DNA of 44,118 nt, taken from an uncultured Planctomycetaceae bacterium. GTDB taxonomy: Bacteria; Planctomycetota; Phycisphaerae; UBA1845; UTPLA1. Within the stretch, counting starts at the first letter, position 1. Every line of letters starts with the position of its first letter. The notes under the pieces are model-generated. The model ran no database searches, was not told the origin of the DNA, and saw only the letters and a list, made by a program, of their open reading frames with translations. This document shows positions 1,736-24,190 of this stretch, piece by piece. The translations under genes and the position numbers were made by a program. The stretch lies in the NCBI GenBank assembly GCA_964514515.1, contig CAZERK010000001.1, positions 1 through 44,118 on the forward strand, in the 5' to 3' direction.

Positions 1736-3739
1736 TCACCATTCCGTGGCCGGTTCGCGGTCCGTGGGCGCCCCGCCCGAATCGCCCGTGACATACCGCA
1801 CGACGCGCGTGGCAGCGGTACCGTGCGGGCTGGTCCGACCGAGCTCCTGCAAGCCCTTATAAGCACCGCCGGCCTCGAACACCTGGTATTTGATCTTCAT
1901 GGGCGCATCCATGATCCGGCGGCGTCCGGGCATGTCGTAGGCATTGCCGGAGGCATGGGAACCCATGACCATAAGCTGCTCTTTCTCCTTGGCGGTGATG
2001 CAGTGGCCGCTATACACGAGACAGTGGCCCATTTCGTGCGAGAATGTATAGCGCTCGTCCTGGGCGGGCTTCATCCGCGCGCTCTCGACGATGATGCACG
2101 GGCCGAACGGCAGGTGGATCCAGGTCGCGATGCCGAAGAGGATCGCGTCGTCCTCGACGGCGAACGACTTGATGATGATGGAATCGAACCACTTGGTGTC
2201 GCAGCAGGCCTTGAGGACGCGGTGCTCGTGGCGGTTGTCGTCCTGTGGGAACGCACCGAGCAACGTCGAGGTCAGCGGCGTGAACGTCGCCGACATCCGC
2301 GTATCGTCGCAGGTCACCGAGGTGATCTCCGCGAATTGCGTGTGATCCGCATCGCGGAAGATGAGGATGTCGCGAGCGGCCTGAATCGGCGGCACGGGCG
2401 GCGGATTGGGCGTGTGCTCGAGCACGCGGCCGTGCAAGCCCTGCGCCTGGATAGCGGCGAGCACGCCGGCCGTCGCGTTGGCGATGGTCGCGTCGCGCGG
2501 CAGGTTGTAGATGATCTTCTTGCCGTCGACCTTCACGGTGATTTTCGAGTTCCCCATCGCCGTGCGAATCGAACGGATGAGGCCGCTGGCACTGAACCCG
2601 GTACCGCTACGGGCACCGATGGTGAGGACGTTCTTGGCGGCCGGGTGCTGATAGATCGCCTTGAGGTGCGGGCGCAGTCCGGTCTGGGCGTAGGCCCGCC
2701 GGACCTGCTTGTAGACGACGCGTCGGACGTCCTCGAGCGAGCAGGCGTTGTCCATAATATGGACCGCCAGGCGCGCTTCGTATTTCATCTCGCCGACATC
2801 GGCGATGACCTCGGCGCGGCACTTACCCGGGTCGCACATCATCGGTTTGTAGCGGGCCCGCACCTTCTGCTCGAGGATCTCGGTGTAGCGCTTCTCGTCG
2901 TTGTTCGCACCATCGTCGTAGTAGTCTCCCACGAAAAGCGTGTGCTCGTAAATGTCGTCCTCTTCGTGCGTGACGAGACGCATATAGCGCGAGCGGAAGA
3001 CATTGGGTTTGCTCGGAAAGGAATGGCACTCGACTTCCAGCTTGCGCTTGGCATTGGTCGGGATCTTGAAGCCCGGTGGACAATCCGGGTCGGGCCGGGA
3101 GGTCAGGTCACGGACGATCTTCGTCTTGCCGCCGACGGTCTCCCGCTTGTACAGCGGCTGGAGGACCTGGAGCTCGACCGTCACGCTCAGCTCGCCCTGC
3201 TCCCCGGCCACGACATCGTGAACCTCAATGCGAAAGTGGTCGGGATCGGCGTGGGTCCGCCCCTCGTCCTCACCCATGGTATCGAGGTTACTGGTGCCTT
3301 TGCCCTTGTATAGGGAGTGCTCGGTGCCGTGGTCCTTCTTGTTGGCCTTATTCGTGACGAAGTTGCTGATGCCCAAGCGCGTCAGCCCCGGGGAGCGCGG
3401 CTCCGCGAGAGGCTGGCCGAAACCCAGAAACTTGATCGAAGCAGGCCGGTACTCCACACGTTTGCACTTGACGACGGTCTTGTCCTGCCCCTCGGTTTCC
3501 TTCTCCTGCTTCTCGGGGATGGTGACGACCTCGTCCTGGTCGAGGACGGCCTTGTTGGCGAGGGCGCTATTGGCCGGCTCCGCGCGGAAGTCTTTGCAGT
3601 CGCGGAAGCCCTGGTTCGCGGCGAACCGGCAGAGATAGTCTCCGGCCCGGGCTTTGACGGTCTTCTTCGCGGTCGGCGTCGTGGGCGTCGACGACCCGGA
3701 CGTGACCGGAGGAACGGTCGGTTTGGGTATGCTGGCCAT
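1736..3739 (-). CDS. VgrG-linked putative T6SS cargo effector (667 aa): LysM-like N-terminal segment, large unknown middle, C-terminal HExxH zinc-metallopeptidase motif
   Basis: The ORF track gives 1736..3997, but its first 86 codons overlap vgrG and are Arg/Gly junk. The internal ATG at 3737-3739 has AAGGAG (3745-3750) and lies 26 nt after the vgrG stop. The protein starts MASIPKPTVPPVTSGSS. Residues about 30-75 (ARAGDYLCRFAANQGFRDCKDFRAEPANSALANKAVLDQDEVVTIPE) fit a LysM-like GD-x-L-x-x-(F/I)A...N...L...IP pattern. YTFSHEMGHCLVYSGH (HEMGH = 2024-2038) is an HExxH motif with a further His 7 residues on and LMVMGSH downstream. The protein is Lys-rich and visibly less GC-rich than its neighbours. 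Confidence 0.75.
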   Translation of the reverse strand: MASIPKPTVPPVTSGSSTPTTPTAKKTVKARAGDYLCRFAANQGFRDCKDFRAEPANSALANKAVLDQDEVVTIPEKQEKETEGQDKTVVKCKRVEYRPASIKFLGFGQPLAEPRSPGLTRLGISNFVTNKANKKDHGTEHSLYKGKGTSNLDTMGEDEGRTHADPDHFRIEVHDVVAGEQGELSVTVELQVLQPLYKRETVGGKTKIVRDLTSRPDPDCPPGFKIPTNAKRKLEVECHSFPSKPNVFRSRYMRLVTHEEDDIYEHTLFVGDYYDDGANNDEKRYTEILEQKVRARYKPMMCDPGKCRAEVIADVGEMKYEARLAVHIMDNACSLEDVRRVVYKQVRRAYAQTGLRPHLKAIYQHPAAKNVLTIGARSGTGFSASGLIRSIRTAMGNSKITVKVDGKKIIYNLPRDATIANATAGVLAAIQAQGLHGRVLEHTPNPPPVPPIQAARDILIFRDADHTQFAEITSVTCDDTRMSATFTPLTSTLLGAFPQDDNRHEHRVLKACCDTKWFDSIIIKSFAVEDDAILFGIATWIHLPFGPCIIVESARMKPAQDERYTFSHEMGHCLVYSGHCITAKEKEQLMVMGSHASGNAYDMPGRRRIMDAPMKIKYQVFEAGGAYKGLQELGRTSPHGTAATRVVRYVTGDSGGAPTDREPATEW

Positions 3740-3765
3740 GCGGACTCCTTTGATCCTCCAGACGT

Positions 3766-6387
3766 CTAGGTGCGATCCCAGGCGTCGTCGTCCAGGCGCG
3801 GGAAGGTCACTTCGCAGTTGCCCTTGGGCACGACCACGCGGGCCTTGCCGTTGGCGTCGAGCGCGCCTTCGTGAATTTGGCCCTTCGAATCCTTCACGCG
3901 GTACTGCTCGCCGGGGACCGGCTCGCCTTCCTCGTCGACAAGCTCGATGTCGATATAGCTCGGCTCTTCCTCGGGCGGCGGCTCCTCGCCCTCCCATTCA
4001 TGTCCGGATACTTCCTCCGGCGGCGTGATCTTGGGCGGCGGGGCACCGGGGGCGGTGTAGACCGTGTCCTTGCCGGGCTTGGAGCTGTCGGCGGCGGTCG
4101 CGTCCTCGGCGTCCACCGGGGCCGCGGGCGAGCAGCTCGGCGACGAGACCGCCGGTCCCGAGCCGCTGTTGATATAGACCATGCTGCCGGTGATGTAGAC
4201 GCCGGCGCCGCAGAGGGTGATCGTGCTGCCGCCGGCCTTCAGCTCAAGGGTGGCGTCGGCCTGCAGCGAGATATTGGCGGCCTTGCACACGTACGTGGCC
4301 GCCACCTCGTGCTTGTGGTTGGTGGAGTATTTCTGCGCCACGTCGCCGTCGATGCTCTCCGAGAGCGTGCCTTTGACCTTCACGGAGCGGTTCTGGTCCA
4401 CGCGCAGCGAATCATCCTTCTCGATCCATGCGCGACGCTCGCCCTTCACGTGCGTCTGCTTGAGCTTGAAGATCTTCTGGCGATACTCGCCGGAAAGCTG
4501 GCCATCCTTCTCGCCGCCGACGAGTAGGTGATAGCTGCCGCCGGTGGTGTGGAAGTGGTCGGCCTTGACGCGGGTGTCCATCTGCCGCTGCGCCTGCAGG
4601 AAGAGCTGCTCGGAATCCTTGAGGTCCTCGAAGCGGATTTCGTTGCAGCCGCCGCCCCCCTTGCTGGAGTGCGTCTTGATGACGCTCTTGGTCTTCTCGT
4701 CCGGCAAGGCGTAGGGCGGCATGTGGTCGGCGTTGAACACGCGGCCGATGATGATGGGCTGGTCCGGATCGCCTTCGAGGAAGTCGACGATGACTTCCTG
4801 GCCGACGCGTGGCAGGAACATCATGCCGTAGCTGCCACCGGCCATGCCCTGAGCGACGCGAATCCAACAGGAGGACTTCTCGTCGAACTTGCCCTCGCGA
4901 TCCCAGTTGAACTGAACGCGCACGCGGCCGTATTCGTCGGTGTAGATTTCCTCGCCGGACGGGCCGACGACGCGGGCGGTCTGCGTGCCGCGCATGACGG
5001 GCCACGGCGTGGCCCGGGGCGGGCGATACGGCACGACCGCCGGAATGCACTCGAAGCTGCACTCGTAGACGGGGGCGTCGAATTCGATCAGCCCGCTGGT
5101 GGTCACGTCGTCGAGCAAATTGCGCAGCGAAACGGCCTCCAGGGCGCTGGCGCCGCTGGCGGCCGCGACGTTGCCGAGATCGCGCGAGACCTGGCCGGCG
5201 TGGTAGACCCAGTTGGTCAGGGCGCGGTGGGCGGTGCCGTCGCCGGCGTGAAAGCGCGAAGCGATCTGCAGCAGGGCCTCGGCGAGTTGGCGCACGTTTT
5301 CGTCGTTGGCCTGGCGCGCGGTCATGAGGGACTGATGCGCGCGGGCGTCGAGCAGGCTGCCGCGGGCGGCGGTGCCGGTCGTAGTGCGCAGGATGGCCTG
5401 CTTGCCCTGATGCGTCAGCGACGTGAGCACGTAGCTGCCGTTGACGGAATCGAGCGGGTGCTCGGCGAGCTCGAACGTGCGGGCAATCGCCAGGCGGTAG
5501 GAGTTGCTCTGGCCGACGCCGAGGACGCGTCCGGACTCGAACTCCTCCATGCGCACCTTGGCGAGCGACGTACCGACGCTCTGTTCCTTGTATTCGCCGG
5601 GATAGTCGAAAAACTGTAGGCCGGTGTCGCGGCCCGCATCGGACTTGGAGTCAAGTTTGAGCTTGGGGTTCTCGAAGCTGAAGTCGTTCAAAGCGACGGC
5701 GCCGGGGCGAACGATCTGCCCGAGCCGGAAGCGATAGATGTGCTCGGTCTCGTGGCTCATGCCGGACGGCGGTACGTAGGGCAGCGTCGCGGTGCCGGTG
5801 ATCGGCTGGTACGCGGCCGTGGCGTCCGCGAGCATGAGCGTGTGCTTGTCCTTGGTCTGCTCGAAGTACCACCAGATGCCCTCTTCCTCGAGCAGGCGGG
5901 CGATGAAGTTGTAGTCGCTCTCGCGGTACTGGACGCAGTACTCGCGGGGTTGATAGGTGCCGGACAACGAGAAGGAGAGATGGTCAGACGAGAAGCCGGC
6001 CTGCGTCAGCACGGCGGTGACGATGTCCTTGGTCGTCTGGTTCTGGAAGATGCGCGAGTTGTAGCGGTGCGTGAGCAGCCAGATGCCCGGGACGAGTTCG
6101 GCGCGGAAATACGCCTGGCTCTCGCTCTGCCCGGTCAGCTCAAAGCGGCTGACGATGCCGTGGAACCAGCGCTCCTCGGTGACCGTGTTGATGCTGAGGA
6201 CGGCGGCTTTGCCGACGATCTCGTTGAGATCCACGGCCAGATCGTCGGTGGCCAGCTCGATCTCGAAGCGGTAGAGCTGGCAGAGACCTTCGTTGCCGCG
6301 GTACCGGATGACCTGGAAGCGGTCCAGGGCGCCCCCGGCCATCTGGAACGCCAGTTGCGATTCGCTGCGATCGTATACGAGCGCCAT
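3766..6387 (-). CDS. vgrG: Type VI secretion spike protein VgrG (TssI), 873 aa, with a C-terminal acidic/Pro-rich linker and a small beta-sandwich-like extension
   Basis: The N-terminus MALVYDRSESQLAFQMAGGALDRFQVIRYRGNEGLCQLYRFEIELATDD is the classic VgrG gp27-like start. Also present: FENPKLKLDS, a gp5 OB-like block (RGTQTARVVGPSGEEIYTDEYGRVRVQFNWDR...WIRVAQGMAGGSYGMMFLPRVGQEVIVDFLEGDPDQPIIIGRVFN) and beta-helix repeats. It directly follows clpV. Confidence 0.97.
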   Translation of the reverse strand: MALVYDRSESQLAFQMAGGALDRFQVIRYRGNEGLCQLYRFEIELATDDLAVDLNEIVGKAAVLSINTVTEERWFHGIVSRFELTGQSESQAYFRAELVPGIWLLTHRYNSRIFQNQTTKDIVTAVLTQAGFSSDHLSFSLSGTYQPREYCVQYRESDYNFIARLLEEEGIWWYFEQTKDKHTLMLADATAAYQPITGTATLPYVPPSGMSHETEHIYRFRLGQIVRPGAVALNDFSFENPKLKLDSKSDAGRDTGLQFFDYPGEYKEQSVGTSLAKVRMEEFESGRVLGVGQSNSYRLAIARTFELAEHPLDSVNGSYVLTSLTHQGKQAILRTTTGTAARGSLLDARAHQSLMTARQANDENVRQLAEALLQIASRFHAGDGTAHRALTNWVYHAGQVSRDLGNVAAASGASALEAVSLRNLLDDVTTSGLIEFDAPVYECSFECIPAVVPYRPPRATPWPVMRGTQTARVVGPSGEEIYTDEYGRVRVQFNWDREGKFDEKSSCWIRVAQGMAGGSYGMMFLPRVGQEVIVDFLEGDPDQPIIIGRVFNADHMPPYALPDEKTKSVIKTHSSKGGGGCNEIRFEDLKDSEQLFLQAQRQMDTRVKADHFHTTGGSYHLLVGGEKDGQLSGEYRQKIFKLKQTHVKGERRAWIEKDDSLRVDQNRSVKVKGTLSESIDGDVAQKYSTNHKHEVAATYVCKAANISLQADATLELKAGGSTITLCGAGVYITGSMVYINSGSGPAVSSPSCSPAAPVDAEDATAADSSKPGKDTVYTAPGAPPPKITPPEEVSGHEWEGEEPPPEEEPSYIDIELVDEEGEPVPGEQYRVKDSKGQIHEGALDANGKARVVVPKGNCEVTFPRLDDDAWDRT

Positions 6388-6470: not shown

Positions 6471-9221
6471 TCAGGCCTCCGTGAACTCGTACACAAACTC
6501 GTTTTCGGCCACGCTCATGTGGATGACCGGCGGCATCTTCTCGGCCGCGAGTTGCTCGAGCAGCCGGCGCGACAGAACGGGGAGCACTTCGCGGTCGATC
6601 ACGTGGTCGATCTGGCGGGCGCCGAGATCGACCTGCTGGCAGCGTGCCGCGATCGCATCGTAGACCGGCTCGTCGGCCCGCAGCGTCACCTTGTGGGCGG
6701 CACCGAGACGCTTGCCGACCTTGCCGAGCTTCATCCGCGCGATGTTCTTGAGCACCTCGTTACTGAGCGTGAAGAACGGGATCACCGTCATCCGCGCGAC
6801 GAGCGCCGGCTTGAAATGCTCGCGCAGGTGCGGATAGATCGACTCGCGCAGCTCCTGCCAATCCACCTCGTTGCCCGACTCGCACATCTGCTGAATCACG
6901 TCCGTGCCCAGATTGCTCGTCAGGAACACGACCGTGTTCTTGAAGTCGATCACGCGGCCTTCGCCGTCGGCGAGATTGCCCTTGTCGAAGACCTGGTAGA
7001 ACAGGTTCATCACGTCGGGGTGGGCCTTCTCGACTTCGTCGAGCAGCACGACCGAGTACGGATTCTGCCGCACCGCCTCGGTGAGCACGCCGCCCTCGCC
7101 GTAGCCGACGTAACCGGGCGGCGAGCCCTTGAGCTGCGAGACGGTGTGCTTCTCCATGAACTCCGACATATTGATCGTGGTCAGGAAGCGCTCCCCTCCG
7201 AAGAGCAAGTCCGCGACCGACAGCGCGAGCTCCGTCTTGCCCGTGCCGCTGGGGCCCACGCAGAGGAACACGCCCATCGGCTGCGTCGGGTTGCCGATGC
7301 CGGCCTTCGATGAACGCAGCTTCTCGGCAACGATCTTGAGGGCGTGATCCTGGCCGACGACGCGGCCGCGGAGCCGATCTTCCATCTGCAGGATCACGCT
7401 GACTTCATCCTTCACGACGCGGCCGACCGGGATGCCGGTCCAGTCGGAGACGACAGCCGCGACGGCGGCGGCGTCCACCTGGGGATATAGCAGCGCGTGC
7501 TCGCCCTGGATGCGCTGCAACTCGGCCATGGCCTCCGTGATCTCGCGACGGAGGGCGGCTTGGTCGACCGGGGCGGCCTTTTCGGGGGCCTTCTCCGGCG
7601 TCTTTTCCGGAACCTTCTCCGGAGCCTTCTCGCCGGCCGGCTTCGTCGGCTGCGCCGCGGCGGCTTCCGCCTGGCGGGCGATGGCGTCCGGGCTGTCCGC
7701 ACCCTGCAGCTTGGCGCGCAGGTCGCGAATGCGGTTCACGGCCGCCAGTTCGGTCTGCCAGCGCTTCTCGGTCTCTTCGCGCTGCGCGAGCAGCTTGGTG
7801 CGCTGCTCCTGCATCTCCTGGAGCATCGCCGTCTCGATCGTCAGCCCGGCCGATTCGTCGCGCTGCAGCGCGGCCACGGCGGTGTCGAGGCTGCTGATCT
7901 GGCGGTCGATGTCCTCCAGTGCCGCGGGACGCGTGGTGAGTGCGACGGCGACGCGCGCGGAGGCGGTATCGAGCAGGTCGACGGCCTTGTCGGGCAGATA
8001 GCGTCCGGAGATGTAGCGTTTGGAGATTTCGGCCGCCGCGGTCACGGCTTCGTCGAGCACGACGACCTTGTGGTGCTTCTCGTACTTGTCCTTCAGGCCG
8101 CGGAGCATGACGACGGTGGCGTCGGTGGTCGGCTCGTTGCAGCGGACGACTTGGAAGCGGCGTTCGAGCGCGGCGTCCTTCTCAAAGTACTTCTTGTATT
8201 CGGCCCAGGTGGTGGCCGCGACGGTGCGCAGCTCGCCGCGGGCGAGGGCCGGCTTGAGCAGGTTGGACGCATCGCCGCCGCCCGACCCGCCGGCACCGAT
8301 GAGCGTGTGCGCTTCGTCGATGAACGTGATCATCGGCTGCGCGCTGTCCTTGATCTCGCGAATCACGTTCTTGAGGCGGTTTTCGAACTCGCCCTTCACG
8401 CCGGCGCCGGCCTGCAGCAGGCCGAGGTCGAGGCAGACGAGCTTCACCCCGCGCAGGAACGGCGGCACGTCGTTCTGCACGATGCGCAGGGCGAGGCCTT
8501 CGACAATCGCGGTTTTGCCCGTACCGGGCTCGCCGACGATGATCGGGTTGTTCTTGCGGCGCCGCCCGAGGATGTCGATCATCTGGCGGATTTCGGCGTC
8601 GCGGCCGAAGACGGGGTCGATGCCGCCGGCCTGCGCCTTGGCGGTGAGATCGACGCAGAACTGCTCCAGCGCGGTGCCGCCGCCCGGCGCACCGGGAGCG
8701 CCTTTGCCCCGCCCTTCCGGCGCGCCACCCGCGGACGGGCCGAGCACGATCTCCTGGAAGTGATCGCGGAGCTGGTCAATATCGATGCGCTCGAGCTCGG
8801 TGGCGAACTCACCGAGGTTCACGTGCGCGGGGTTCAGCGCCAGGGCCAGGATGAGCAGGCCCGGACGGATCTGCTCGATGCCGAACTCGTCGGCCATCAC
8901 GCCGGCGGACTGGAAGAGCTCGACGAGCTTGGGCGAGAGCGCGGGCCGGCCGCGGTGCTGCGCGGGCATCTGGTCGAGGGCCCGCTGCACGGCGCGGCGG
9001 AGGCGCGTGCGGTCGACCTTGAAGGTGCCGAAGATCTGGTTGACGTCGCTGACGTTCTCGTCAAGCAGACGCAAGAGCAGGTGCTCGGGCGTGACCTCGT
9101 AGTGTGTGCGCGAGGCGCAGACACTCGTGGCCCCCTGGAAGGCCTGAATGCACTGGGCGTCACTGCGCCGCAGCAGGTTACGAAGCTGTTCCGCGGTGGA
9201 TGCGGAGGGTGTCTCGCTCAT
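6471..9221 (-). CDS. clpV: Type VI secretion AAA+ ATPase ClpV (TssH), 916 aa
   Basis: Clp N-domain-like start. Two Walker A boxes (GEPGTGKTAIVEGLA and GPSGTGKTELA). ClpB-like blocks: LLKPALARGELRTVAATTW, RRFQVVRCNEPT, GARQIDHVI. Located between tssG and vgrG. Confidence 0.97.
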   Translation of the reverse strand: MSETPSASTAEQLRNLLRRSDAQCIQAFQGATSVCASRTHYEVTPEHLLLRLLDENVSDVNQIFGTFKVDRTRLRRAVQRALDQMPAQHRGRPALSPKLVELFQSAGVMADEFGIEQIRPGLLILALALNPAHVNLGEFATELERIDIDQLRDHFQEIVLGPSAGGAPEGRGKGAPGAPGGGTALEQFCVDLTAKAQAGGIDPVFGRDAEIRQMIDILGRRRKNNPIIVGEPGTGKTAIVEGLALRIVQNDVPPFLRGVKLVCLDLGLLQAGAGVKGEFENRLKNVIREIKDSAQPMITFIDEAHTLIGAGGSGGGDASNLLKPALARGELRTVAATTWAEYKKYFEKDAALERRFQVVRCNEPTTDATVVMLRGLKDKYEKHHKVVVLDEAVTAAAEISKRYISGRYLPDKAVDLLDTASARVAVALTTRPAALEDIDRQISSLDTAVAALQRDESAGLTIETAMLQEMQEQRTKLLAQREETEKRWQTELAAVNRIRDLRAKLQGADSPDAIARQAEAAAAQPTKPAGEKAPEKVPEKTPEKAPEKAAPVDQAALRREITEAMAELQRIQGEHALLYPQVDAAAVAAVVSDWTGIPVGRVVKDEVSVILQMEDRLRGRVVGQDHALKIVAEKLRSSKAGIGNPTQPMGVFLCVGPSGTGKTELALSVADLLFGGERFLTTINMSEFMEKHTVSQLKGSPPGYVGYGEGGVLTEAVRQNPYSVVLLDEVEKAHPDVMNLFYQVFDKGNLADGEGRVIDFKNTVVFLTSNLGTDVIQQMCESGNEVDWQELRESIYPHLREHFKPALVARMTVIPFFTLSNEVLKNIARMKLGKVGKRLGAAHKVTLRADEPVYDAIAARCQQVDLGARQIDHVIDREVLPVLSRRLLEQLAAEKMPPVIHMSVAENEFVYEFTEA
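7577..7636 (-). repeat. Five tandem 12-nt units encoding (x-P-E-K)n inside clpV
   Basis: The minus strand reads GAG AAG GCT CCG GAG AAG GTT CCG GAA AAG ACG CCG GAG AAG GCC CCC GAA AAG = EKAPEKVPEKTPEKAPEK. Confidence 0.8.
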
Positions 9222-9308: not shown

Positions 9309-10406
9309 TTAGCTCGCGGCAAAGGTCACCGCGGTTTCGCCGAGTTCGCCGGCCCGCACCCAGCTCGTCCAGCCGAGGCGGCCGGCCTGTTCATCCGAAC
9401 TCAGTTGCGTCATGGGCACCTCGCCGGCGCGCAGCACGATTTCGAGCGCGAACGCCAGCGGGTCCGCGCAGTACAGCCGCGTCAGGGCCCGAGTTTGCTC
9501 GTAGCGCGTCCCGCCGGGGAGGAACGTCTCGTACGTCGCCAGGTCGACGGGCCCCAGACGGATCGTAAACGCGCCGCCGAGGTCGTAGACCTGGTCCCCC
9601 ACCGTGAGGTTTACACCGAGGCCGCAATTGACGGCGCCGAGGCGGTTCAAATCGCCCGGCTCCAGCGGCACCCATTGCCCGACGAACTGCTGCACCTGCA
9701 CGGGAATGTCGCCCCAATAGTCGAAGAGCAGGCCCTGCAGGCTCGTCGCGGAGCGCGGGCGCTGCGTCAGCAAACCGGCGTAGCGCAGCAGCCGCAACGG
9801 CGGCACGCCGAGCGTTTCGGCGTCGTACTCCGGCGGACAACCGATGAGCATTTTCAGATAGTCGGTCACCACGTCGCGCTGCGGGGCGGCGAAGGCGCGC
9901 TCGTAGTGATATTTCATCCACGCGCGATAGAACAGCGAGATCACGCGGTGATGCAGGACGTCAACAAAGTCGCGCATCGGGCTCGACCCCGGCAACACGT
10001 CCTTGCCCGGCTCGTGCCCGAGGGATCTGCGGTCCAGGGCGCGCTCGGGGTCGCTCGCTCGCAGGATGTCCACGGCGTAGTGCAGCGGCAGCGGAGTCGA
10101 GCCGCCGTATAGACCGAGGAACGCGACCTCCAGTAGCTGGCACAGGGCGCCATCGGCGCCGGGGAACTCGGTCAGGCTGCACACGTCGGTCGCGGGGAAG
10201 CTCAGCGACAGGTCGGGGCGGAAGCGAATTCGTTCCTGCGCGACGGGGCCGCGCTGGCCGACGGGCGTGCCGCCGGCACTGGCACGTTCGAGCAACCACA
10301 CGGCCTGGAAGAAGTCGAACTCCCAGGGCCGGGCGCGCAGCCGGTCCAGGCCATCCGCCGGAGCGGACGCCGGGGCCGGGTTCGGGCTGGCGCTGATCGC
10401 GGTCAT
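9309..10406 (-). CDS. tssG: Type VI secretion baseplate protein TssG
   Basis: RARPWEFDFFQAVWLLER...ERIRFRPDLSLSFPATDV is the conserved TssG N-terminal signature. 4-nt ATGA overlap with tssF (10403-10406). Confidence 0.93.
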   Translation of the reverse strand: MTAISASPNPAPASAPADGLDRLRARPWEFDFFQAVWLLERASAGGTPVGQRGPVAQERIRFRPDLSLSFPATDVCSLTEFPGADGALCQLLEVAFLGLYGGSTPLPLHYAVDILRASDPERALDRRSLGHEPGKDVLPGSSPMRDFVDVLHHRVISLFYRAWMKYHYERAFAAPQRDVVTDYLKMLIGCPPEYDAETLGVPPLRLLRYAGLLTQRPRSATSLQGLLFDYWGDIPVQVQQFVGQWVPLEPGDLNRLGAVNCGLGVNLTVGDQVYDLGGAFTIRLGPVDLATYETFLPGGTRYEQTRALTRLYCADPLAFALEIVLRAGEVPMTQLSSDEQAGRLGWTSWVRAGELGETAVTFAAS

Positions 10407-12208
10407 GGCAAGCTCTCCGCCGGTGTGCCCTGCTCGCCGGCGCGCGGCGGGAAGGCGTGAATCTGTCCGCTGCGCGTGAAGCGCACCGTCAACTGGCTGA
10501 AGGCGTTGACGGTGACGTAGGCCCCGAAGAAGCGGTCGAGGAGGGCGGCGAAGAGGAACGCGTCGCCCTCGCCCGCAAAGTTTTCCTCGTTGAGCTCCAA
10601 CTCCAGATGCGTGCCGCGGATCGGCGCACCGCGCACCATGCGTTCGCGATACGACGCGCGCAGGGTCACGATGCCGTCGAGCAGACGCTGGTGGACCAAC
10701 GCCCGCTGCGCGTCGTGCGCGGCCTGGTAGTCGTAGACGCGCAACAGCTCGCGCAGATGCTCGATCTTGGCGAGCGAGACGTAGTTCAGCGACAGGTGCG
10801 AGATCAGCCGCCAGTGCAGCCCGCGCCCCAGCGGCGGGCGAACGGTCGGCGTCGGCTTGAGCAGATTGCGGAAGCGGATGCCCGACGGCGACGCGTCGGT
10901 CGGCTCGCTGATATCGCCCGCGCGCAATTCGCCGGGCAGGTCGCGGTTCGTGCAGGTCAGGTCGATGGAGATGGTCTCTTCCGACGGCACGGTCTCCGTT
11001 CCCCCACCCACGACAAACGAGACGAACGTGTCGGTGCCCCAGCGGGCCTCCTTGCCGATCATGCTCGGGGCGACCTGCAACTGGTAGTACGTCGCCGCGC
11101 GCGGGTCATTCGTAGCCACGTGGGCGAACGAGTAGAACGGCATGAACTCGTGCGATTCGAGGTCCTGCGCCCGTACGAGCCCCAGCACACGATCGACCGA
11201 ATAGACCTCGGCGTGGCGACGATCGGCGATGCCCGCACGGGCCGGCTGCACGAGGTAGCGCACGCGATCCTGGCTCAGGCGGATCGGTTCGGCGCTGTGC
11301 GCGAAGAGGTTCACGATCGGCACGCAGTGGAGACGGATGTTCTCCGGGGCGACGAGCGGGTACGACTCCAGCCGCCGATTGAAATAGAACGTCAGCTCCA
11401 GGCTGCCCTCCAGCTCCAGGGCGTTGACGGCGCGGTCGAGCCCGCCCACATCCACGAACAGGAAGCGCTCCTTGAGCGTGAAGTACTCCTGGATATGGCA
11501 GTAGCCGCTGAAAACATACGGCGGGTACGGCAGGATGTGCTCGGACGGATCGAGGCCCGCAGCGCGGACGTCCTGCGGCTGAAGCGTGAACTCGCGCCGC
11601 GCGCTGCCGCCGGCGCCGTTGCTCACCGTGACGCGATCCACGTGGGCGGCCAGGAGCAGATAAAGTGCGAACGACGTGCGCGCGTCCCCTGCAAGGTGCA
11701 GCCGCACGCGATCCAGTTCCATGTCCGCCAGCTTCGCCTTGGCGGCCGCGCGGAGCTGCAGCGTGAGGCGCGCGGGCTCCGCGGGTGGCGTTTCCAGCCG
11801 AACGCCCGCCAGTCCCCACGGGCGGAGCTTCGTCGGCCAGGCGGAGCGATAGCGGCAACTGGTGCCGTCGATCGGGCGGCTCGCGAATTCGGCCCCGGCC
11901 GGCACTTCGACCGGCGCCTGCATGGCTTCGATTTCGGGGACGAATTCGAGGACCGACATCGACGGAACGGGCCGCAGGTAATGCGGCCAGAGGAGCGACA
12001 TGAGGCTGCCGGTCAGCTCGGGCAGCTCGTCGTCGAGTTTCTGGCGGATGCGTCCGCAGAGGAAGGCAACGCCTTCGAGCAAACGATCGACGTCGGGGTC
12101 GGCGCCGGGATCGGCAAGATGGCGCGCGATCTCCGGGTTGGCCCGGGCGAACTCGGGCCCGACTTCGCGGAGATAGCGTAACTCGTCCTGGTAGTACGTA
12201 TTGCTCAC
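10403..12208 (-). CDS. tssF: Type VI secretion baseplate protein TssF
   Basis: MSNTYYQDELRYLREVGPEFARANPEIARHLADPGADPDVDRLLEGVAFLCGRIRQKLDDELPE is the canonical TssF N-terminus. 601 aa. Confidence 0.95.
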   Translation of the reverse strand: MSNTYYQDELRYLREVGPEFARANPEIARHLADPGADPDVDRLLEGVAFLCGRIRQKLDDELPELTGSLMSLLWPHYLRPVPSMSVLEFVPEIEAMQAPVEVPAGAEFASRPIDGTSCRYRSAWPTKLRPWGLAGVRLETPPAEPARLTLQLRAAAKAKLADMELDRVRLHLAGDARTSFALYLLLAAHVDRVTVSNGAGGSARREFTLQPQDVRAAGLDPSEHILPYPPYVFSGYCHIQEYFTLKERFLFVDVGGLDRAVNALELEGSLELTFYFNRRLESYPLVAPENIRLHCVPIVNLFAHSAEPIRLSQDRVRYLVQPARAGIADRRHAEVYSVDRVLGLVRAQDLESHEFMPFYSFAHVATNDPRAATYYQLQVAPSMIGKEARWGTDTFVSFVVGGGTETVPSEETISIDLTCTNRDLPGELRAGDISEPTDASPSGIRFRNLLKPTPTVRPPLGRGLHWRLISHLSLNYVSLAKIEHLRELLRVYDYQAAHDAQRALVHQRLLDGIVTLRASYRERMVRGAPIRGTHLELELNEENFAGEGDAFLFAALLDRFFGAYVTVNAFSQLTVRFTRSGQIHAFPPRAGEQGTPAESLP

Positions 12209-12300
12209 AGGCGGTTCCGATCCTCTGACCCAAGTCCATGAGGCGCGCGCATTCGTCCGGCACGGAGGCCTGACGCTATGCGTGCAGCGCGGTGCAGCGC

Positions 12301-12738
12301 CTAACCCGACACGCTGAAGCGGCCCGCGGGCGACACGGCGGTTTCGTACCAGACGCGGTGTTCGCCGCCGCGGCCGACCATGACGGCATCGACGCGGAAC
12401 ACGAGGTTGCGCTGGTCGCCCTCACCGGCCTGGTGGGACACGCGGACGCGTTTGAGACGCGGCTCGTACTTTTCGATGGCCGTCCGGATCGCCTCCTGCA
12501 CGCGCAGGAGGTAGGCCTGACTGCCGGCGACCATGTCGGTCAGGGCGGGCAGGCCGTAATCCGGAGCGGTCTCGCTCATGCCATGCCGGGAGTTGAGCAG
12601 CCGATTGAGGTTCCGCTGGACCGACTGCATGAGGGCCTCGGGGTCCTCGGCAGCCGTGGTCTGATAGCGGCCCGCAATAGGCGTTTCACCGGCGGCAAGT
12701 CGATCGAGCAGCGACTGTTCGCGCGCCACGCACTCCAC
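12301..12738 (-). CDS. tssE: Type VI secretion baseplate protein TssE (gp25-like)
   Basis: SLLDRL...LMQSVQRNLNRLLNSRHG...DYGLP...IRTAIEKYEPRLKRVRV matches the gp25/GPW-like pattern. GTG start at 12736-12738; an alternative GTG lies at 12727-12729. Positioned between hcp and tssF. Confidence 0.85.
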   Translation of the reverse strand: MECVAREQSLLDRLAAGETPIAGRYQTTAAEDPEALMQSVQRNLNRLLNSRHGMSETAPDYGLPALTDMVAGSQAYLLRVQEAIRTAIEKYEPRLKRVRVSHQAGEGDQRNLVFRVDAVMVGRGGEHRVWYETAVSPAGRFSVSG

Positions 12739-12815
12739 CTCGTCGGGCTCGCGGCCGACCGGCGACGGGGGTTACGCCGCCCGCCGCCGATCGCCGCGGA
12801 TGCGCGAGAAGCCGC

Positions 12816-13295
12816 TTAGGCGGCACCGGGCTGCCGCCACTCGTCCATTTCGACCACGCTGTCGGGCAGCCAGTTCCACTCGATGATCTCGTAGACGAAA
12901 CTGACCTGCTCCATGTGGCGGTAGGACTCGTTCTGCGGCACGAACGACATGGGCATGTACGGCCGCATGTCGACGATGCGCGCGTTTTTCAGGGTGATGG
13001 TGTAGTACTTCGACTCGGACCGGGTCGTGGGGTCGATCCGGTAGAAGTCGAGGACGACCTCCTTGAGGTTCTGGCCGGTGCAGAGGGCCTTGTGGAAGCC
13101 GGGGGTGGCCTTATCGATGATCTTCACCACCCGCATGGGGCTGTGCACGCGCACGCCGGTCGCCTGGCCCGTGGTGGGGTCCAGGGGCTGGTGGATGTGA
13201 TGTTCGATCTCGAAGACGTCGGACGTGCCTTCGCGGCCCTTCTTCTCGGAAGAACCCGGATACTCGCCCACTTTCAGATTGCACGGGGTTGGCAT
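12816..13295 (-). CDS. hcp: Type VI secretion tube protein Hcp (TssD)
   Basis: 159 aa. ATG at 13293-13295 with AAGGAG (13303-13308). Hcp-like blocks: REGTSDVFEIEHHIHQPLDPTTGQATG-RVHSPMRVVKIIDKATP...EVVLDFYRIDP...YYTITLKNARIVDM. Canonical slot after tssC. Confidence 0.9.
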   Translation of the reverse strand: MPTPCNLKVGEYPGSSEKKGREGTSDVFEIEHHIHQPLDPTTGQATGVRVHSPMRVVKIIDKATPGFHKALCTGQNLKEVVLDFYRIDPTTRSESKYYTITLKNARIVDMRPYMPMSFVPQNESYRHMEQVSFVYEIIEWNWLPDSVVEMDEWRQPGAA

Positions 13296-13425: not shown

Positions 13426-14907
13426 TCATTGCGGCGGCGGGTCGAACTGGCCCACCATGGAGAGCTGCACTTCGACGCCCTTGAGGCGGAAGTGCGGGAT
13501 CATCTGGATCTCGGACTTGAACATGCCGGGCTTGCCGGGGACCGGCGTCGCGGTGACCTGGATCTCCTTGATGGGGTACTTGGAGGCCAGTTCGTCGTCG
13601 AGGGTGCCCTGGCGGCAGTACTGCTTGAGCCAGGTGTTGATCTCGTTGACCATCTTCTCGGCGTCCATGACGCGGCCCATGTTTTCGCGCCAGATCACCT
13701 TCAGGTAGTGGGCGATGCGGCACTGGATCATGAGGTACGGCAGAGACATGCCGAGCCGCGCGCGGGTCTCGTCTTCCTTGCCCTCGGGCGTATCGGCGAA
13801 CTTGCCGACGCGCTTGCACGAGGGGGCGTCGAAGAAGGCGGCGTTGTCGCTGCCCTTGCGCATGACCAGCGGCACGAAGCCGAAGTTGCACAGGTCGACG
13901 TCCATGTCTTCGGAGATCAGCGTTTCGGTCGGGATCTTGGTGTGGTACTGGCCGGTCGCCTCGTACTGGTGCAGCGGGAGGTTCGGCACCGTGCCGCCGC
14001 TGTTGGGGCCGACGATGGCATTGTACCAGCCGTACCTGGCGAAGCTCTCGGTCATGCGCCCGGCAAGGGCGAACGAGGCATTGCCCCACAGATAGCGGCT
14101 GTGGTCCTGGACGCGGACGTCTTCTTCGAAGACGAAGTCCTTCACGTCCTGGTTCGCCACGGTGTACGGCGAGCGGAGCAGGAAGCGCGGCATCGCCAGC
14201 GCGACGTAGCGGGCGTCGTCCGACTGGCGGAACGAGTTCCACTTCGTGTACATGGGCTGCTCGAAGATCTCGTACATTTCCGAGAGCTTGGGCAGCTTGC
14301 TGTAGTCGCCCATGTTCTTGTCGAACATCTTCGGGCTGGCGCCGGCGATGAACGGGCACTTGGCAACGGCGGCGACACGGGCGATTTCGCTGAGCAGCTC
14401 GACCTCGGGGTTGCGGTAGTCGAAGTCGTAATTGCTGACCATCATGCCGTAGGGGTTGCCGCCGAACGTGTTGTACTGGTCGCGATAGACCGTCTTGAAC
14501 AGGCCCGATTTCTGCCAGTCCTTACAGTCCTGGAAGTCTTCGAGCAGGTCCTGCTTCGAGGCGTTGAGCATCTCGATGCGGATGTTCTGTCGGAACTCGG
14601 TGTTGTCGATCAGGTACCAGAGGCTGCGCCACGAGGACTCGAGCTTCTGGAACTGCTCGTTGTGCAGTACCTCGTTGACCTGGGCGCTGATCTGCTGGTC
14701 GATTTCGGCGATGAAGTCGTCGACGACCTGCTTGTTGATCGTCACCTTGTTGAGGTCCAGACCGGCGGCCTTCTGCACGAGGCCCGCCAAGCCCTTGCGA
14801 TAGAGATCCATGTACTCGTGATCGAGATCGAGCTGATCGATCAGCGAGTCTACCGCCGTCGTGTCGGAAGCGCCGGCCGCAGCGGCTTGCTGGGGTTGTC
14901 CTGCCAT
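13426..14907 (-). CDS. tssC: Type VI secretion contractile sheath large subunit TssC
   Basis: 493 aa. QISAQVNEVLHNEQFQKLESSWRSLWYLI, CPFIAGASPKMF and GPNSGGTVPNLPLHQYE are typical TssC/VipB blocks. Confidence 0.97.
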   Translation of the reverse strand: MAGQPQQAAAAGASDTTAVDSLIDQLDLDHEYMDLYRKGLAGLVQKAAGLDLNKVTINKQVVDDFIAEIDQQISAQVNEVLHNEQFQKLESSWRSLWYLIDNTEFRQNIRIEMLNASKQDLLEDFQDCKDWQKSGLFKTVYRDQYNTFGGNPYGMMVSNYDFDYRNPEVELLSEIARVAAVAKCPFIAGASPKMFDKNMGDYSKLPKLSEMYEIFEQPMYTKWNSFRQSDDARYVALAMPRFLLRSPYTVANQDVKDFVFEEDVRVQDHSRYLWGNASFALAGRMTESFARYGWYNAIVGPNSGGTVPNLPLHQYEATGQYHTKIPTETLISEDMDVDLCNFGFVPLVMRKGSDNAAFFDAPSCKRVGKFADTPEGKEDETRARLGMSLPYLMIQCRIAHYLKVIWRENMGRVMDAEKMVNEINTWLKQYCRQGTLDDELASKYPIKEIQVTATPVPGKPGMFKSEIQMIPHFRLKGVEVQLSMVGQFDPPPQ

Positions 14908-14966: not shown

Positions 14967-15473
14967 TTACTGCTGAGGCGGCGCTTCGCCGCCGGCGGCT
15001 TCCTCCGGTTGCGAGATGAGCGCCAGGATCTTGTCGCGGACTTCGGGGTCCTTGATGGCGGCGAGCAGCTTCTGCTGCGCGTTCTTGTCGCCCATCTTGG
15101 GGCGCAGCGCCTTGAGGGCGTCGCGCAGATCGAGCAGGTTCTTGAGCTGCGGGACCTGACGAGCGACCGCTTCGGGGCGGAAGTCCTTGAGCGTGCCGAA
15201 CTTCAGCGAGACCGGCATTTCGCCGGCGCCGGCAATGCGGTTGGCCACGGAGGTCTCGAGCGACAGGTTGAAGCTCTGCATCACCGAGTCGAAGTTGGTC
15301 TTGTTGATGTCGACCGGCGCGCGGTCTTCGACGGGGCGCTTGTCATCCTTGAGCGTGTAATCGCCCATCACCAGCAGCCGGAACGGCAATTCCGGTTCGG
15401 CGCCGCCGCGCAGGCGGTCCGAGATCGCGATGTTCACCCGTGATTCACGAGCCTTCGACGGTCCTTTGGCCAT
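14967..15473 (-). CDS. tssB: Type VI secretion contractile sheath small subunit TssB
   Basis: 168 aa. ELPFRLLVMGDYT...INKTNFDSVMQSFNLSL...LKFGTLKDFRPEAVARQVPQLKNLLDLRDAL is the TssB/VipA signature. Confidence 0.95.
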   Translation of the reverse strand: MAKGPSKARESRVNIAISDRLRGGAEPELPFRLLVMGDYTLKDDKRPVEDRAPVDINKTNFDSVMQSFNLSLETSVANRIAGAGEMPVSLKFGTLKDFRPEAVARQVPQLKNLLDLRDALKALRPKMGDKNAQQKLLAAIKDPEVRDKILALISQPEEAAGGEAPPQQ

Positions 15474-15497: not shown

Positions 15498-17063
15498 TCA
15501 ACCTTTATTGCCCGCTGGGTCGGCGGCCAGCGCCGCCAGAGGATCCAGTTGACAGAGCCACGCAAACGAATCGCGGACGCGCCCGAGCTCCTCGGGCGTC
15601 GGTTCCTTGTCCGTAGTCAGCAGCGCCTTGCGGCAGCGGTAGAGCGTCTGGGCCGCTTCGACCGCCAGGGCGGGCTCCCACTCGTCGATGTGGTAGCGCC
15701 GCAGTTCCTCGAAGCATTCCTCCAGGAGCGGCGCTGCCAGCGCCAGGCGCTGCGCGTCGTAGCAGAGCTGCGCGATGCGCAGCCGCCACAGGAAGCGGTC
15801 GCGCCGCTGCGCGCAGGTGCTCAGGCCGTCCTGCAAGATCTTGACCGCCTCCGCCAGCTTGCCCGTCCCCGCGAGCTTGCGGGCACCGTCCCAGGCTTCC
15901 ATGAGCTTGCCGTCGCCGGCCGCCCCCCCACCGCCGCCCGCGGACTGCGGCGGCGTGACGTCCGACTCGATCCACATCTTCGTCTCACCGCTGCACAGCG
16001 GCATGCCGTTGCGGAAGCGGAGATCGAACAGGCCGTTGCCGAGGCGGCGCACCAGTGCCCCCGTCAGATCCAGAATCGCGCGCCGCGCCAGTTCGAACTG
16101 CGGCCCGCGCGCCTGCAAAGCCGCACAGACGTAACGCTGTAGATCGAGCCACAAGGGGTCGCTCGAACGGAACGCATCCTCGGCGTTATTCAGCAGGTGA
16201 TCCCACAACCCGCCGGCAAACTGGAATTGCAGTGCTTCGGCCAGCGTCTTGTCCGGAGGTTCGACCTGCGTCATGACCTCGGGCGAGGGCAGTTCGATGC
16301 GGGCCCACTTCACGAGCCGCGCGAGCGCGTACGGCAGCGGATTCGCGAGGTCGGATTTCGCCAGGAAATTGGCCGCACTGAGCACGGCCTGGATCGCGCC
16401 GGACGCGTCGGCCACGGCCGCGATCGCGACGGCGCCTTCCGGCAGAACCGCGGCGGCACCACCTTCACCCACGGCGGGCGCCGCTACGGCCGGCTCGGCG
16501 GGCTTGGGCCGTTCGTTGGCGAGATCCCGGAGACGGCGCTGCAGTTTGGCGAAGTCCGGCGCGTCGTCCGGCATCTTCTCGGTGAGCAGCGTGTTCAGTT
16601 CTGCGAGGCGCTGCACGCAAGTGTCGACGGCGTCGAACTCGCTCGGACGCGGCTTGCCGTCGCCGCTGAGCCAGCCGGCGTCCACCAGATGCTCGCATAG
16701 GGATTCCATGCGGGCTTTGCGGCGGCGCGGCCGCGCGGGGAAACCGTTGTCCCAGAAGTTGCGGGACAGCTCGATGAACAGGCCGAGCGTGGCCGCGAGT
16801 CCGGCGTAGCGCTCCTTCTTGACCAGGCCGAAGCCGAGGGCGGTGGCGATGTGCGTGTCCTTGGACTTGCTGCGCAGGATGTTGCGAGCAGACTGATCGA
16901 CTTTGAACCAGTCGACCTCGCCCAGATCGATGCGATCGAGCTTCGAGAGCTCGGCCTCGATGAGCAGGTAGTCTTCGTCGTCGGCAACTTCCTGCCCAGC
17001 GGGCGCAGCATCGCTGATCGGGTTCCTGCCGAGGTCCAGAACTGCAGCTTCGTCGAGCGCCAT
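15498..17063 (-). CDS. tssA: Type VI secretion protein TssA (ImpA N-terminal domain family)
   Basis: 521 aa. ImpA_N-like N-terminus (LGRNPISDAAPAGQEVADDEDYLLIEAELSKLD...VDWFKVDQSARNILRSKSKDTHIATAL) and a helical C-terminal half. Located immediately upstream of tssB. Confidence 0.85.
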   Translation of the reverse strand: MALDEAAVLDLGRNPISDAAPAGQEVADDEDYLLIEAELSKLDRIDLGEVDWFKVDQSARNILRSKSKDTHIATALGFGLVKKERYAGLAATLGLFIELSRNFWDNGFPARPRRRKARMESLCEHLVDAGWLSGDGKPRPSEFDAVDTCVQRLAELNTLLTEKMPDDAPDFAKLQRRLRDLANERPKPAEPAVAAPAVGEGGAAAVLPEGAVAIAAVADASGAIQAVLSAANFLAKSDLANPLPYALARLVKWARIELPSPEVMTQVEPPDKTLAEALQFQFAGGLWDHLLNNAEDAFRSSDPLWLDLQRYVCAALQARGPQFELARRAILDLTGALVRRLGNGLFDLRFRNGMPLCSGETKMWIESDVTPPQSAGGGGGAAGDGKLMEAWDGARKLAGTGKLAEAVKILQDGLSTCAQRRDRFLWRLRIAQLCYDAQRLALAAPLLEECFEELRRYHIDEWEPALAVEAAQTLYRCRKALLTTDKEPTPEELGRVRDSFAWLCQLDPLAALAADPAGNKG

Positions 17064-23368: not shown

Positions 23369-24190
23369 CTACTTCTTCTTCTTCTCGTTCTTGTCGCCCG
23401 CGTCGTCGCTCTTGGCGACCGCGGCGGGCACGTTGCCGCCGCTCCAGGCCTCCGCGGCCCTGGAGATGCCGGCGGTTTCGCGGCTCCAAGCGAGCCGGAA
23501 CGTGACCAACGACACGCCGACCACGAGGGCAAGAATCACGAGCACCAGCGCCAGGCTCATGCCCAGCTTGTAGTCGACCTTGAGTTCCTGGTTGTGCTTG
23601 TACGCGTCGGGGAACATCTCTTTGCCGCGCGTGGTGGCATAAGCCGGCAGCCGCGTGAACAGCCGCCGCGTGTAGTCGCCGAGTTCCTGCGGGCGGTCGT
23701 GGAACTGGCCCTTAAAACCCAGCCGCAGGCAGATGAAGTACAGGTTGAGCTTTTCGGCGAGTTCGTACTTGTCGCGGCGGTCGCGGCGTTCGGCCAGCTC
23801 GTAGTCCTTCTGCAGCGTGTCGCAGTCCTCGAAGAACTTCTCGCCGCCGAGGGCCTCGATGTGGTTGAGCACGTCGGGGTCGGTCTCGAAGCGGTTGTCG
23901 AACCAGAAGTCGCGCCCGTCCCAGTCGGTGTTGAGCATCTTGTAGTCGAGGAAGTAGACCATCATCGCTTTGAGATGGTCCTCCCAGGCGCGCTGCGCGA
24001 GGGGATCGCGGCCGGCGATGTCGTCCGCGTCGCGCAGGGCGTTGAGCGCTTCGTAGCGCACCTGGTCCGGCGGCGGCAGCGTGCCCATCTTGGCCTGCCG
24101 CGCGAAGTTGATGGCGAAGTCGAAGATCGGCCAGCAGACCTCGGTGAGGCGCAGCCCGGCACCTTCATGGGGCTCGACGGCGGTCGTCAT
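23369..24190 (-). CDS. tssL: Type VI secretion membrane-complex protein TssL (DotU family), without a peptidoglycan-binding extension
   Basis: 273 aa. The DotU signature LNLYFICLRLGFKGQF is followed by one TM helix (LALVLVILALVVGVSLV) and a short Lys-rich tail. ATGA overlap with tssK (24187-24190). Confidence 0.85.
   Translation of the reverse strand: MTTAVEPHEGAGLRLTEVCWPIFDFAINFARQAKMGTLPPPDQVRYEALNALRDADDIAGRDPLAQRAWEDHLKAMMVYFLDYKMLNTDWDGRDFWFDNRFETDPDVLNHIEALGGEKFFEDCDTLQKDYELAERRDRRDKYELAEKLNLYFICLRLGFKGQFHDRPQELGDYTRRLFTRLPAYATTRGKEMFPDAYKHNQELKVDYKLGMSLALVLVILALVVGVSLVTFRLAWSRETAGISRAAEAWSGGNVPAAVAKSDDAGDKNEKKKK

Follow-up and report, generated by a model that had tools for sequence, protein, structure and literature searches.

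The DNA analyzed here is a 44,118-nt stretch of contig CAZERK010000001.1 from an uncultured Planctomycetaceae bacterium (the window, meaning this stretch at its full length). It carries a complete type VI secretion system (T6SS) cluster on the minus strand, and all window features described below lie on that strand. Our subject is the putative effector gene at 1736–3739 (stop codon included), which encodes a 667-aa protein with LysM-like, beta-rich and metzincin-like zinc peptidase domains. It is preceded by vgrG (3766–6387; 873 aa), whose product matches Phage_GPD, Phage_base_V, Gp5_trimer_C and TIGR03361, and followed by the gene of a 298-aa partner, a probable cognate immunity or inhibitor protein (717–1613). 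Directly after the partner gene comes a PAAR gene (PF05488 PAAR_motif, E 5e-6), present with its 5′ part (1–685, translation beginning MPAARTNDPTQHG) before it runs off the window. A 26-nt spacer separates the TAG stop of vgrG (3766–3768) from the ATG of the effector gene (3737–3739), and a Shine-Dalgarno sequence, AAGGAG (3745–3750), can be read 5 nt ahead of this ATG. An earlier note, made from the letters of the DNA alone, had described the same start, 26 nt past vgrG and with a strong ribosome-binding site, and our reading agrees with it; the strictly linked partner gene and the PAAR gene beyond were absent from that note. The maximal open reading frame (ORF) for the effector, 753 aa long and overlapping vgrG, was rejected as an over-extension because homologs begin at the same Met (P0001 is also 667 aa long).

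The C-terminal part of the protein contains the sequence HEMGH (2024–2038, residues 568–572) inside YTFSHEMGHCLVYSGH (residues 564–579), followed by LMVMGSH at residues 589–595. Together with a third His, H579, the putative zinc-binding motif reads HEMGHCLVYSGH (2003–2038). H579 is located at +7 from H572, vs. +6 in the metzincin pattern; these elements, including the displaced third His, had been read correctly in the earlier note. For conservation counts, 170 family members were aligned to the family profile, and the denominators given are the members covering the respective site. H568, E569, H572 and H579 were present in 150/150 members, and the majority family motif is HExGHxLxDxxH. A Met located 11 residues past the third His (M590, 1970–1972), found in 135/149 members and aligned to the Met of the snapalysin 'ELM' sequence, is a candidate for the Met of a Met-turn. 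Outside the C-terminal region, D165 (codon 3245–3247) was conserved in 153/154 members. In alignments with only 13–16% mean column identity, very few columns are invariant, and the four site residues and D165 belong to these; in the 121-sequence alignment A3 D165 is one of just five invariant residues. These invariant columns are the strongest evidence we have, and they argue that the HExxH is catalytic and not incidental. The earlier note had allowed for a non-catalytic context of the motif; invariant zinc ligands and Glu, the conserved Met that follows and the fold neighbors described below all point the other way. By the same token, we find it highly improbable that the protein is a non-enzymatic structural or adaptor protein that bridges VgrG to other cargo and keeps the HExxH as a relic. 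Such a role would suit the conserved gene position, and LysM proteins can be pure adaptors in vgrG loci (Kalk_10460, PMC10673891), but absolute conservation of four site residues at about 25% overall identity is unexpected for a relic, and most related clusters do without a family member.

The full-length AlphaFold2 model (predicted local distance difference test score, pLDDT, 81; predicted template modelling score, pTM, 0.80) is confident and, together with Foldseek, suggests that the site belongs to a metzincin-like zinc peptidase domain at residues 311–611 (1907–2809), with the HExxH on the helix 565–575 of a C-terminal alpha/beta region. Secondary structure in the models suggests that this domain is interrupted by an inserted alpha/beta domain of about 130 residues (about 372–500; 2240–2626). 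Because the multi-domain query diluted the full-length Foldseek search, residues 308–667 were modelled separately (pLDDT 75). With this model, all peptidase matches in the PDB were metzincins, with E values of 0.14–0.5 and template modelling (TM) scores of 0.37–0.42 on targets of about 200 aa; they comprised MPII (4on1), profragilysin (3p24), snake-venom metalloproteinases (2w12, 1iag), ADAM8/33, PAPP-A and MMP-11. A profile search against the PDB aligned snapalysin and MPII with the stretch from the HExxH to the LM at E about 1. Metzincins were thus the only peptidase folds recovered by either method, with all matches below significance, and we consider the metzincin assignment as consistent but not proven. 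Foldseek also returned phage tail sheaths (Mu sheath 9ki1_1, E 2e-4; A-1(L) and Milano sheaths) and D2/D3 of the flagellin FliC, with TM scores of 0.14–0.23. These matches probably stem from the inserted domain at about 372–500, although the tool gives no aligned positions, and at such very low TM scores a relationship to sheaths was not accepted.

At the other end of the protein, the N-terminus MASIPKPTVPPVTSGSSTPTTPTAKK lacks a hydrophobic core as judged by sequence, with no dedicated signal-peptide predictor applied. The Pro/Thr-rich tail of residues 1–25 (3665–3739) is predicted to be disordered (pLDDT < 50 for residues 1–23), without a hydrophobic signal sequence. It leads into a LysM-like domain (residues 26–76; 3512–3664) with a conserved pair of cysteines, C37 (140/145 members) and C48 (144/149). 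In the model a beta-alpha-alpha-beta unit is formed by residues 27–73 with pLDDT of about 85–91. The profile of this domain gave hhalign probabilities of 82% (E 1e-5) against a canonical LysM, that of E. coli YgaU (sequence entered by hand), and of 96% against the LysM-like domain of the PAAR ortholog two genes downstream in the closest genome. On the strength of the model fold and the 82% hhalign probability, 'LysM-like', the term given in the earlier note to 3515–3652 (residues 30–75), is right at fold level. Isolated N-terminal domains of relatives reached E values of 0.02–0.09 against Pfam LysM, which is below threshold, and no LysM structure was found when the domain profile was searched against PDB sequences. 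Kinship with the gpX-type LysM of phage baseplates was considered and rejected (hhalign probability 2% to P2 gpX, sequence entered by hand).

A survey of 130,825 vgrG loci named LysM among six domain families that are encoded either as proteins of their own or as fusions, to the C-terminus of VgrG or to the N-terminus of a toxin, and co-immunoprecipitation showed that LysM mediates the binding of effector to VgrG (PMC10673891, 2023). By analogy, the N-terminal module probably docks the protein studied here to VgrG, and it may possibly bind peptidoglycan as well. As for VgrG itself, its last ~65 residues (about 3769–3975) resemble a transthyretin-like beta-sandwich, and its C-terminal 144 aa gave a weak CarboxypepD_reg match (E 0.035) and nothing else.

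A linker, disordered in the model (residues 80–96), joins the LysM-like domain to a beta-rich middle domain (residues 99–310; 2810–3445), for which no database match was found and whose fold is without assignment. It contains the invariant D165 within the motif DPDxF(K/R)VEV and a second Cys pair, C302 (2834–2836; 147/157 members) and C307 (2819–2821; 145/154). In P0012–P0014 (alignment A1, columns about 400–500) this domain has a Gly/Ala-rich, hydrophobic, glycine-zipper-like insertion of about 100 residues, which may be a membrane-inserting element. The protein closes with a C-terminal tail ending in TEW (residues 612–667; 1739–1906), which is confined to the window's own clade: only 16 of the 170 aligned members reach R661, E666 and W667.

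The family is large and without annotation. The family profile, run against 1.84 billion representatives, collected 479 clusters at 50% identity with E ≤ 1e-3, 166 of them with E ≤ 1e-30, while a word-indexed search with the window protein gave 24 relatives, all labelled 'hypothetical'. Searches of the window protein against Pfam, NCBIfam, PADLOC and PDB sequences revealed nothing significant; the matches to Ribosomal_S5_C (weak, at residues 370–413), capP and uS5 were at chance level, and the Pfam models of Tox-MPTase1–5, M91 and DUF4157 did not match at E ≤ 1. Scanning of 70 family members against Pfam gave a single eCIS_core match (E 0.04), no Tox-MPTase match and, in single members, scattered sub-threshold matches to M7, M10, M43 and Reprolysin_5. 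The proposal that the family stands apart from known groups is borne out in that it is outside every Pfam, NCBIfam and PADLOC model, those of the Tox-MPTase families included. In P0153, P0161, P0165 and P0168 the beta-rich and peptidase module forms the C-terminus of proteins of 1617–2017 aa. The N-terminal parts of these long carriers contained no Pfam domain at E ≤ 1e-3, hence no evidence for a trafficking domain, and no Pfam trafficking domain was found in family variants lacking the N-terminal LysM. In one such variant, P0119, the LysM domain is replaced by a signal peptide of the lipoprotein type.

We then looked at the company that the family keeps in other genomes. With the family profile, 41 genome loci were recovered, from metagenome-assembled genomes (MAGs) of Phycisphaerae, Planctomycetes, Acidobacteriota/Bryobacterales, Verrucomicrobiota, Myxococcaceae, Desulfobacterota, Paraglaciecola and Burkholderiaceae. 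vgrG was directly upstream of, or one gene away from, the family member in 36/41, and these vgrG-associated loci span Planctomycetota, Acidobacteriota, Verrucomicrobiota, Myxococcota, Desulfobacterota and Proteobacteria. The order clpV-vgrG-family member was seen in 25/41 loci, usually with tssF-tssG ahead, and metagenome loci displayed the same association with vgrG. Two of the five loci without vgrG are contig ends and the other three are orphan pairs of effector and partner genes (L017, L031 and L035, in Paraglaciecola, Bryobacterales and Burkholderiaceae MAGs) with no vgrG within 8 kb; the orphan ORF from Burkholderiaceae is 838 aa long, with a Cys-rich N-terminal extension replacing the usual start.

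As seeding with the family itself biases the sample toward the family, we also assembled a set seeded by the window VgrG, comprising 57 loci in which the sequence extends 2.2 kb or more past vgrG. A full family member was present in 8/57: in 7/11 loci with a VgrG at least 54% identical and in 1/46 with a more distant one. In another 7/57 loci the encoded protein, about 205 aa long, matches the profile at positions 16–97 only (LysM and linker) and continues, by eye, as a beta-sandwich with a peptidoglycan-binding-domain-like C-terminus. Because only closely related VgrGs carry the family, its distribution suggests lineage-specific cargo on a reusable docking module, not a core machine part; with vgrG nearby in 36/41 loci, the family very probably consists of VgrG-associated cargo, in line with the earlier note.

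The docking module itself occurs in other proteins. LysM-linker proteins of about 205–290 aa stand after vgrG in clusters without the peptidase (L065:9276–9902, L071:9424–10047, L091:7219–7854, L104:2872–3519, L056:9969–10838 and 12255–13055), and by eye they end in a PG_binding_1-like part, which is the architecture of the C-terminal half of the PAAR protein. The PAAR ortholog of 567 aa at L008:7586–9289 consists of PAAR, a Gly run, a Pro-rich linker, a transthyretin-like segment (by eye), a LysM-like domain, a further segment and PG_binding_1 (E 2e-9). Its LysM-like domain is homologous to the effector N-terminus (hidden Markov model positions 16–91, E 8e-11). As this ortholog carries both LysM-like and PG_binding_1 domains, the spike tip would also bear domains of the cell-wall-binding type.

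These observations bear on the idea that the protein is no toxin at all but a spike-borne penetration enzyme, the T6SS counterpart of phage tail-associated lysins, which would locally cut the cell wall or an envelope protein of the target and so let the spike through, along with further cargo, for instance the PAAR payload. LysM would then bind peptidoglycan and the partner would merely hold the enzyme inactive in the producer. The fixed place after vgrG in many phyla, usually within the tssF-tssG-clpV-vgrG block, agrees with this, as do the LysM-like and PG_binding_1 domains of the PAAR ortholog and the small LysM/beta-sandwich/PG_binding_1 proteins at the same position in related clusters. 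Nevertheless, most related T6SS clusters have no family member, and a non-toxic enzyme needs no strictly linked, fast-evolving partner with lipoprotein leaders. To our knowledge, moreover, HExxH metzincin-like enzymes are not a class of peptidoglycan hydrolases. On balance we hold a penetration enzyme to be quite unlikely.

The partner gene gave the second major line of evidence. A homolog of the 298-aa protein, detected by its profile, adjoins the family member in 45/48 loci, and the three exceptions are contig ends; in four loci it is located between vgrG and the effector gene. The partner matched nothing in Pfam or NCBIfam, and its relatives are all 'hypothetical'. In 20 loci, pairwise identities of effector and partner correlated with a Pearson coefficient of 0.82, vs. 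0.45–0.53 with ClpV or VgrG. Both proteins diverge faster than the apparatus, with median pairwise identities of 39% (effector) and 26% (partner) vs. 56% (ClpV) and 45% (VgrG). The L030 locus is a clear case of exchange: compared with the window, its ClpV and VgrG are 72% and 60% identical, but its effector and partner only 30% and 25%. As the apparatus is close and the pair distant, the effector-partner pair appears to have been exchanged between clusters. Such linkage and co-divergence are the behavior of an effector-immunity pair.

Hydrophobic N-terminal leaders, judged on longest-ORF starts by a simple hydropathy and lipobox rule, were found in 18/38 non-redundant partner copies, at least 7 of them with a lipobox; leaders of this kind are typical of envelope immunity proteins. 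An in-frame ATG at 1716–1718, tried as the start of a leader for the window partner, was rejected because translation from it reaches a TAA stop before the annotated start. The leaderless copies leave room for a role as cytoplasmic inhibitor or chaperone, and they raise the question of whether the effector acts in the cytoplasm of the target cell, or on eukaryotic prey such as protists, with the leaderless partner as a cytoplasmic immunity protein or a dedicated chaperone/adaptor. The lack of a signal sequence in the partners of the window clade and of roughly half of all loci would fit, and a recently reported HExxH T6SS effector, T6EC12, is toxic on expression in both E. coli and yeast (bioRxiv 10.64898/2026.09.28.754971). 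Against this, 18 of the 38 copies of this partner do have lipobox or signal leaders, the two Cys pairs and the lipoprotein-signal variant indicate an oxidising, extracytoplasmic site, and a purely anti-eukaryotic effector needs no immunity-like partner at every locus. We therefore regard a cytoplasmic or eukaryotic target as unlikely.

Taken together, the explanation that we favor, and consider fairly probable, is that the gene encodes a cargo effector of its own T6SS cluster, with LysM-like docking, a metzincin-like peptidase and a cognate partner. The effector would be made without a signal peptide, as seen in its sequence, and its LysM-like module and linker would dock onto the VgrG encoded just upstream, as published LysM-bearing effectors suggest; the transthyretin-like C-terminal end of VgrG might conceivably be the docking site. 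The protein would then be fired with the spike into a neighboring cell. There, in the envelope or periplasm, disulfides could form from the two conserved Cys pairs, and the C-terminal zinc endopeptidase would cleave its target, with H568, H572 and H579 as proposed ligands, E569 as general base and M590 as Met-turn residue. The Cys pairs C37/C48 and C302/C307 (each conserved in >93%) and the lipoprotein-signal variant P0119 support extracytoplasmic action. The earlier note had named peptidoglycan or an envelope protein as possible targets. Peptidoglycan-directed action is not favored, because metzincin-like enzymes are protein endopeptidases and LysM docking requires no peptidoglycan binding; the target is more likely an envelope protein. 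The 298-aa partner would bind and neutralise the effector as its immunity protein, exported or lipid-anchored in about half of the lineages, and in the window clade, where it has no leader, it may be a cytoplasmic inhibitor or a chaperone for loading.

Several points weigh against this explanation. Secretion, toxicity, zinc binding and proteolysis are all properties that we infer for every member of the family. The metzincin fold matches are individually weak (E 0.14–0.5, with a TM score of about 0.25 on the query), and the canonical HExxHxxGxxH is not present, since the third His is shifted to +7 and position +3 is not a Gly. With Pfam LysM, the window protein gave no match at E ≤ 1. Pfam LysM matches in 6 of the 70 scanned members, first taken as support for the N-terminal domain, were downgraded because the two that could be placed (P0121, P0087) map to an additional, canonical LysM that interrupts the beta-rich domain. 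The window partner and its whole clade have no export signal, a poor fit with a periplasmic immunity protein. Finally, the fixed position after vgrG, usually as tssF-tssG-clpV-vgrG, is more conserved across phyla than is usual for cargo.

A further reading combines two ideas, that the effector is a self-inhibited zymogen and that the LysM-linker is a dedicated spike-docking device of an old T6SS lineage. The beta-rich domain would be an intramolecular prodomain in which D165 of DPDxFKVEV caps the zinc, comparable to the aspartate switch of profragilysin. The docking device, seen as a module on the effector, the PAAR protein and the small LysM/PG_binding_1 proteins, would be analogous to the LysM hub proteins in the baseplates of phages and extracellular contractile injection systems (eCIS), thought to be lacking in T6SSs. 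That both ideas hold jointly seems to us rather doubtful.

In comparison with known systems, the cargo effector that we propose is a new family of a known kind, without a new kind of system or a new principle. LysM-bearing T6SS examples include BRPE_05220 of Burkholderia sp. RPE67 (LysM-NlpC/P60) and Kalk_10460 of Ketobacter alkanivorans (Commun Biol 2023, PMC10673891). Like the LysM cargo effectors described there, the protein is encoded right after vgrG and has an N-terminal LysM-type domain followed by an enzymatic toxin domain; the module also follows the stand-alone or fused pattern of that study, as it occurs as a small protein, on other C-termini and on a PAAR protein. Unlike them, it has a divergent LysM (no Pfam match, a conserved Cys pair) and a zinc peptidase as its toxin domain, and VgrG binding, which was shown for the published effectors, is here proposed by analogy.

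The closest precedent for the pair is Tpe/Tpi, represented by the C-terminal metallopeptidase of P. aeruginosa VgrG2b with PA0261 and by A. baylyi Tpe1/Tpi1 (Cell Rep 2019, PMC6899460), where an HExxH zinc peptidase is likewise carried on the VgrG spike and the published pairs act in the periplasm. Here the peptidase is on a separate LysM cargo protein and is not fused to VgrG, and its third ligand would be the His at +7, followed by the conserved Met. Tpi immunity proteins reach the envelope differently by lineage, as soluble periplasmic proteins with a signal peptide, as lipoproteins or by a transmembrane helix (PMC6899460), whereas about half of the partners in our family are leaderless. 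The VgrG2b chain was absent from the PDB sequence and profile matches (E ≤ 10) and from the top 50 Foldseek matches.

The metzincins, among them fragilysin/MPII (M10C), adamalysins/ADAMs (M12B), snapalysin (M7) and pappalysin (M43), share with our protein the HExxH helix, the third His and a Met 11 residues further on. They differ in their motif (HExxHxxGxxH, vs. HExxHxxxxxxH without the Gly) and lack the extra domain, about 130 residues long, that interrupts the catalytic fold in its N-terminal half. Tox-MPTase1–5, HopH1/NleD (M91) and PVC-metallopeptidase/DUF4157 (Zhang et al. 2012, PMC3482391) are HExxH toxin modules tied to T6SS or related delivery, and as in such polymorphic toxins the domain is C-terminal in a few proteins of 1600–2000 aa. 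Yet none of their Pfam models matched more than one of the 70 family members at E ≤ 0.1, and polymorphic-toxin zincin domains are small and usually stand behind RHS repeats, which is not so here. T6EC12 of Methylocaldum szegediense has been reported as a new HExxH cargo effector that is built on a two-domain scaffold and has its own immunity protein (bioRxiv 10.64898/2026.09.28.754971). Compared by description only, it resembles our protein in that the position at +7 from its second His is conserved (D312 in T6EC12), but it has HELSH as its motif, and an Asp and a Glu are conserved in addition. Nothing relevant was found in the literature on metzincin T6SS effectors.

Catalogues of T6SS effectors come mostly from Proteobacteria. 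The effector-partner family described here is large, lacks annotation and accompanies VgrG in Planctomycetota, Acidobacteriota, Verrucomicrobiota, Myxococcota and other groups, for which almost nothing is known of T6SS cargo. If the assignment is correct, it adds a peptidase with an unusual zinc motif, the third His being at +7, to the few known metallopeptidase toxins of T6SSs. It is also well suited for testing whether LysM serves as a VgrG-docking module, as recently proposed, and the switching of the partner between leaderless and lipoprotein forms gives a handle on where such toxins are neutralised.

As to the origin of the gene, the earlier note had called its DNA visibly less GC-rich than the apparatus genes and its product Lys-rich, and had proposed horizontal acquisition. 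The GC content of the gene, 63.5%, is indeed below that of the window (67.1%), but TssC (62.1%) and Hcp (62.3%) are lower still. Its Lys content of 6.7% is similar to that of TssL (6.6%) and below that of TssB (8.3%). At third codon positions the GC content (GC3) is 85.3%, within the tss-gene range of 84–92%, and with the tss genes as reference the codon adaptation index is 0.657, within their range of 0.635–0.806. Since GC3 and codon use match those of the tss genes, recent horizontal acquisition is unsupported, and this part of the note, which had named such agreement as evidence to the contrary, has to be given up. The lower GC content stems from the amino-acid composition of the protein and not from foreign codons. 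Over longer time scales, effector and partner genes do move together between apparatus lineages, as seen with L030.

The remaining cluster genes comprise, upstream of vgrG, ClpV (6471–9221), TssG (9309–10406), TssF (10403–12208), Hcp (12816–13295), TssC (13426–14907), TssB (14967–15473), TssA (15498–17063), TssM (18502–23280), TssL (23369–24190) and TssK (24187–25797). The TssM candidate is 1592 aa long, and Pfam recognises only its IcmF-related N-terminal domain. Four ORFs in or beside the cluster have no Pfam match: 17286–18278 (330 aa), 25828–26754 (308 aa), 26798–27283 (161 aa) and 27922–32358 (1478 aa). GC3 of the 308-aa ORF is unusually low (71.5%), and its codon adaptation index (0.449) is low as well.

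Two further features were noticed in the related loci. In many of them, vgrG and the effector gene are separated by an additional ORF of about 135 aa (for example L012:7631–8035, L028:2937–3347, L041:7593–7997, L046:7482–7886 and L071:9023–9412), which is homologous to part of the window VgrG, by position probably its C-terminal end, and may be a split or frameshifted C-terminal domain of VgrG. A few kb beyond the effector island, a single gene for about 540–615 aa combines the Pfam domains VipA (TssB) and VipB (TssC), as in L003:17517–18139, L005:16625–18448, L006:12926–14545 and L008:11960–13798. TssB and TssC of the window are separate, and this gene may be a fused second sheath gene.

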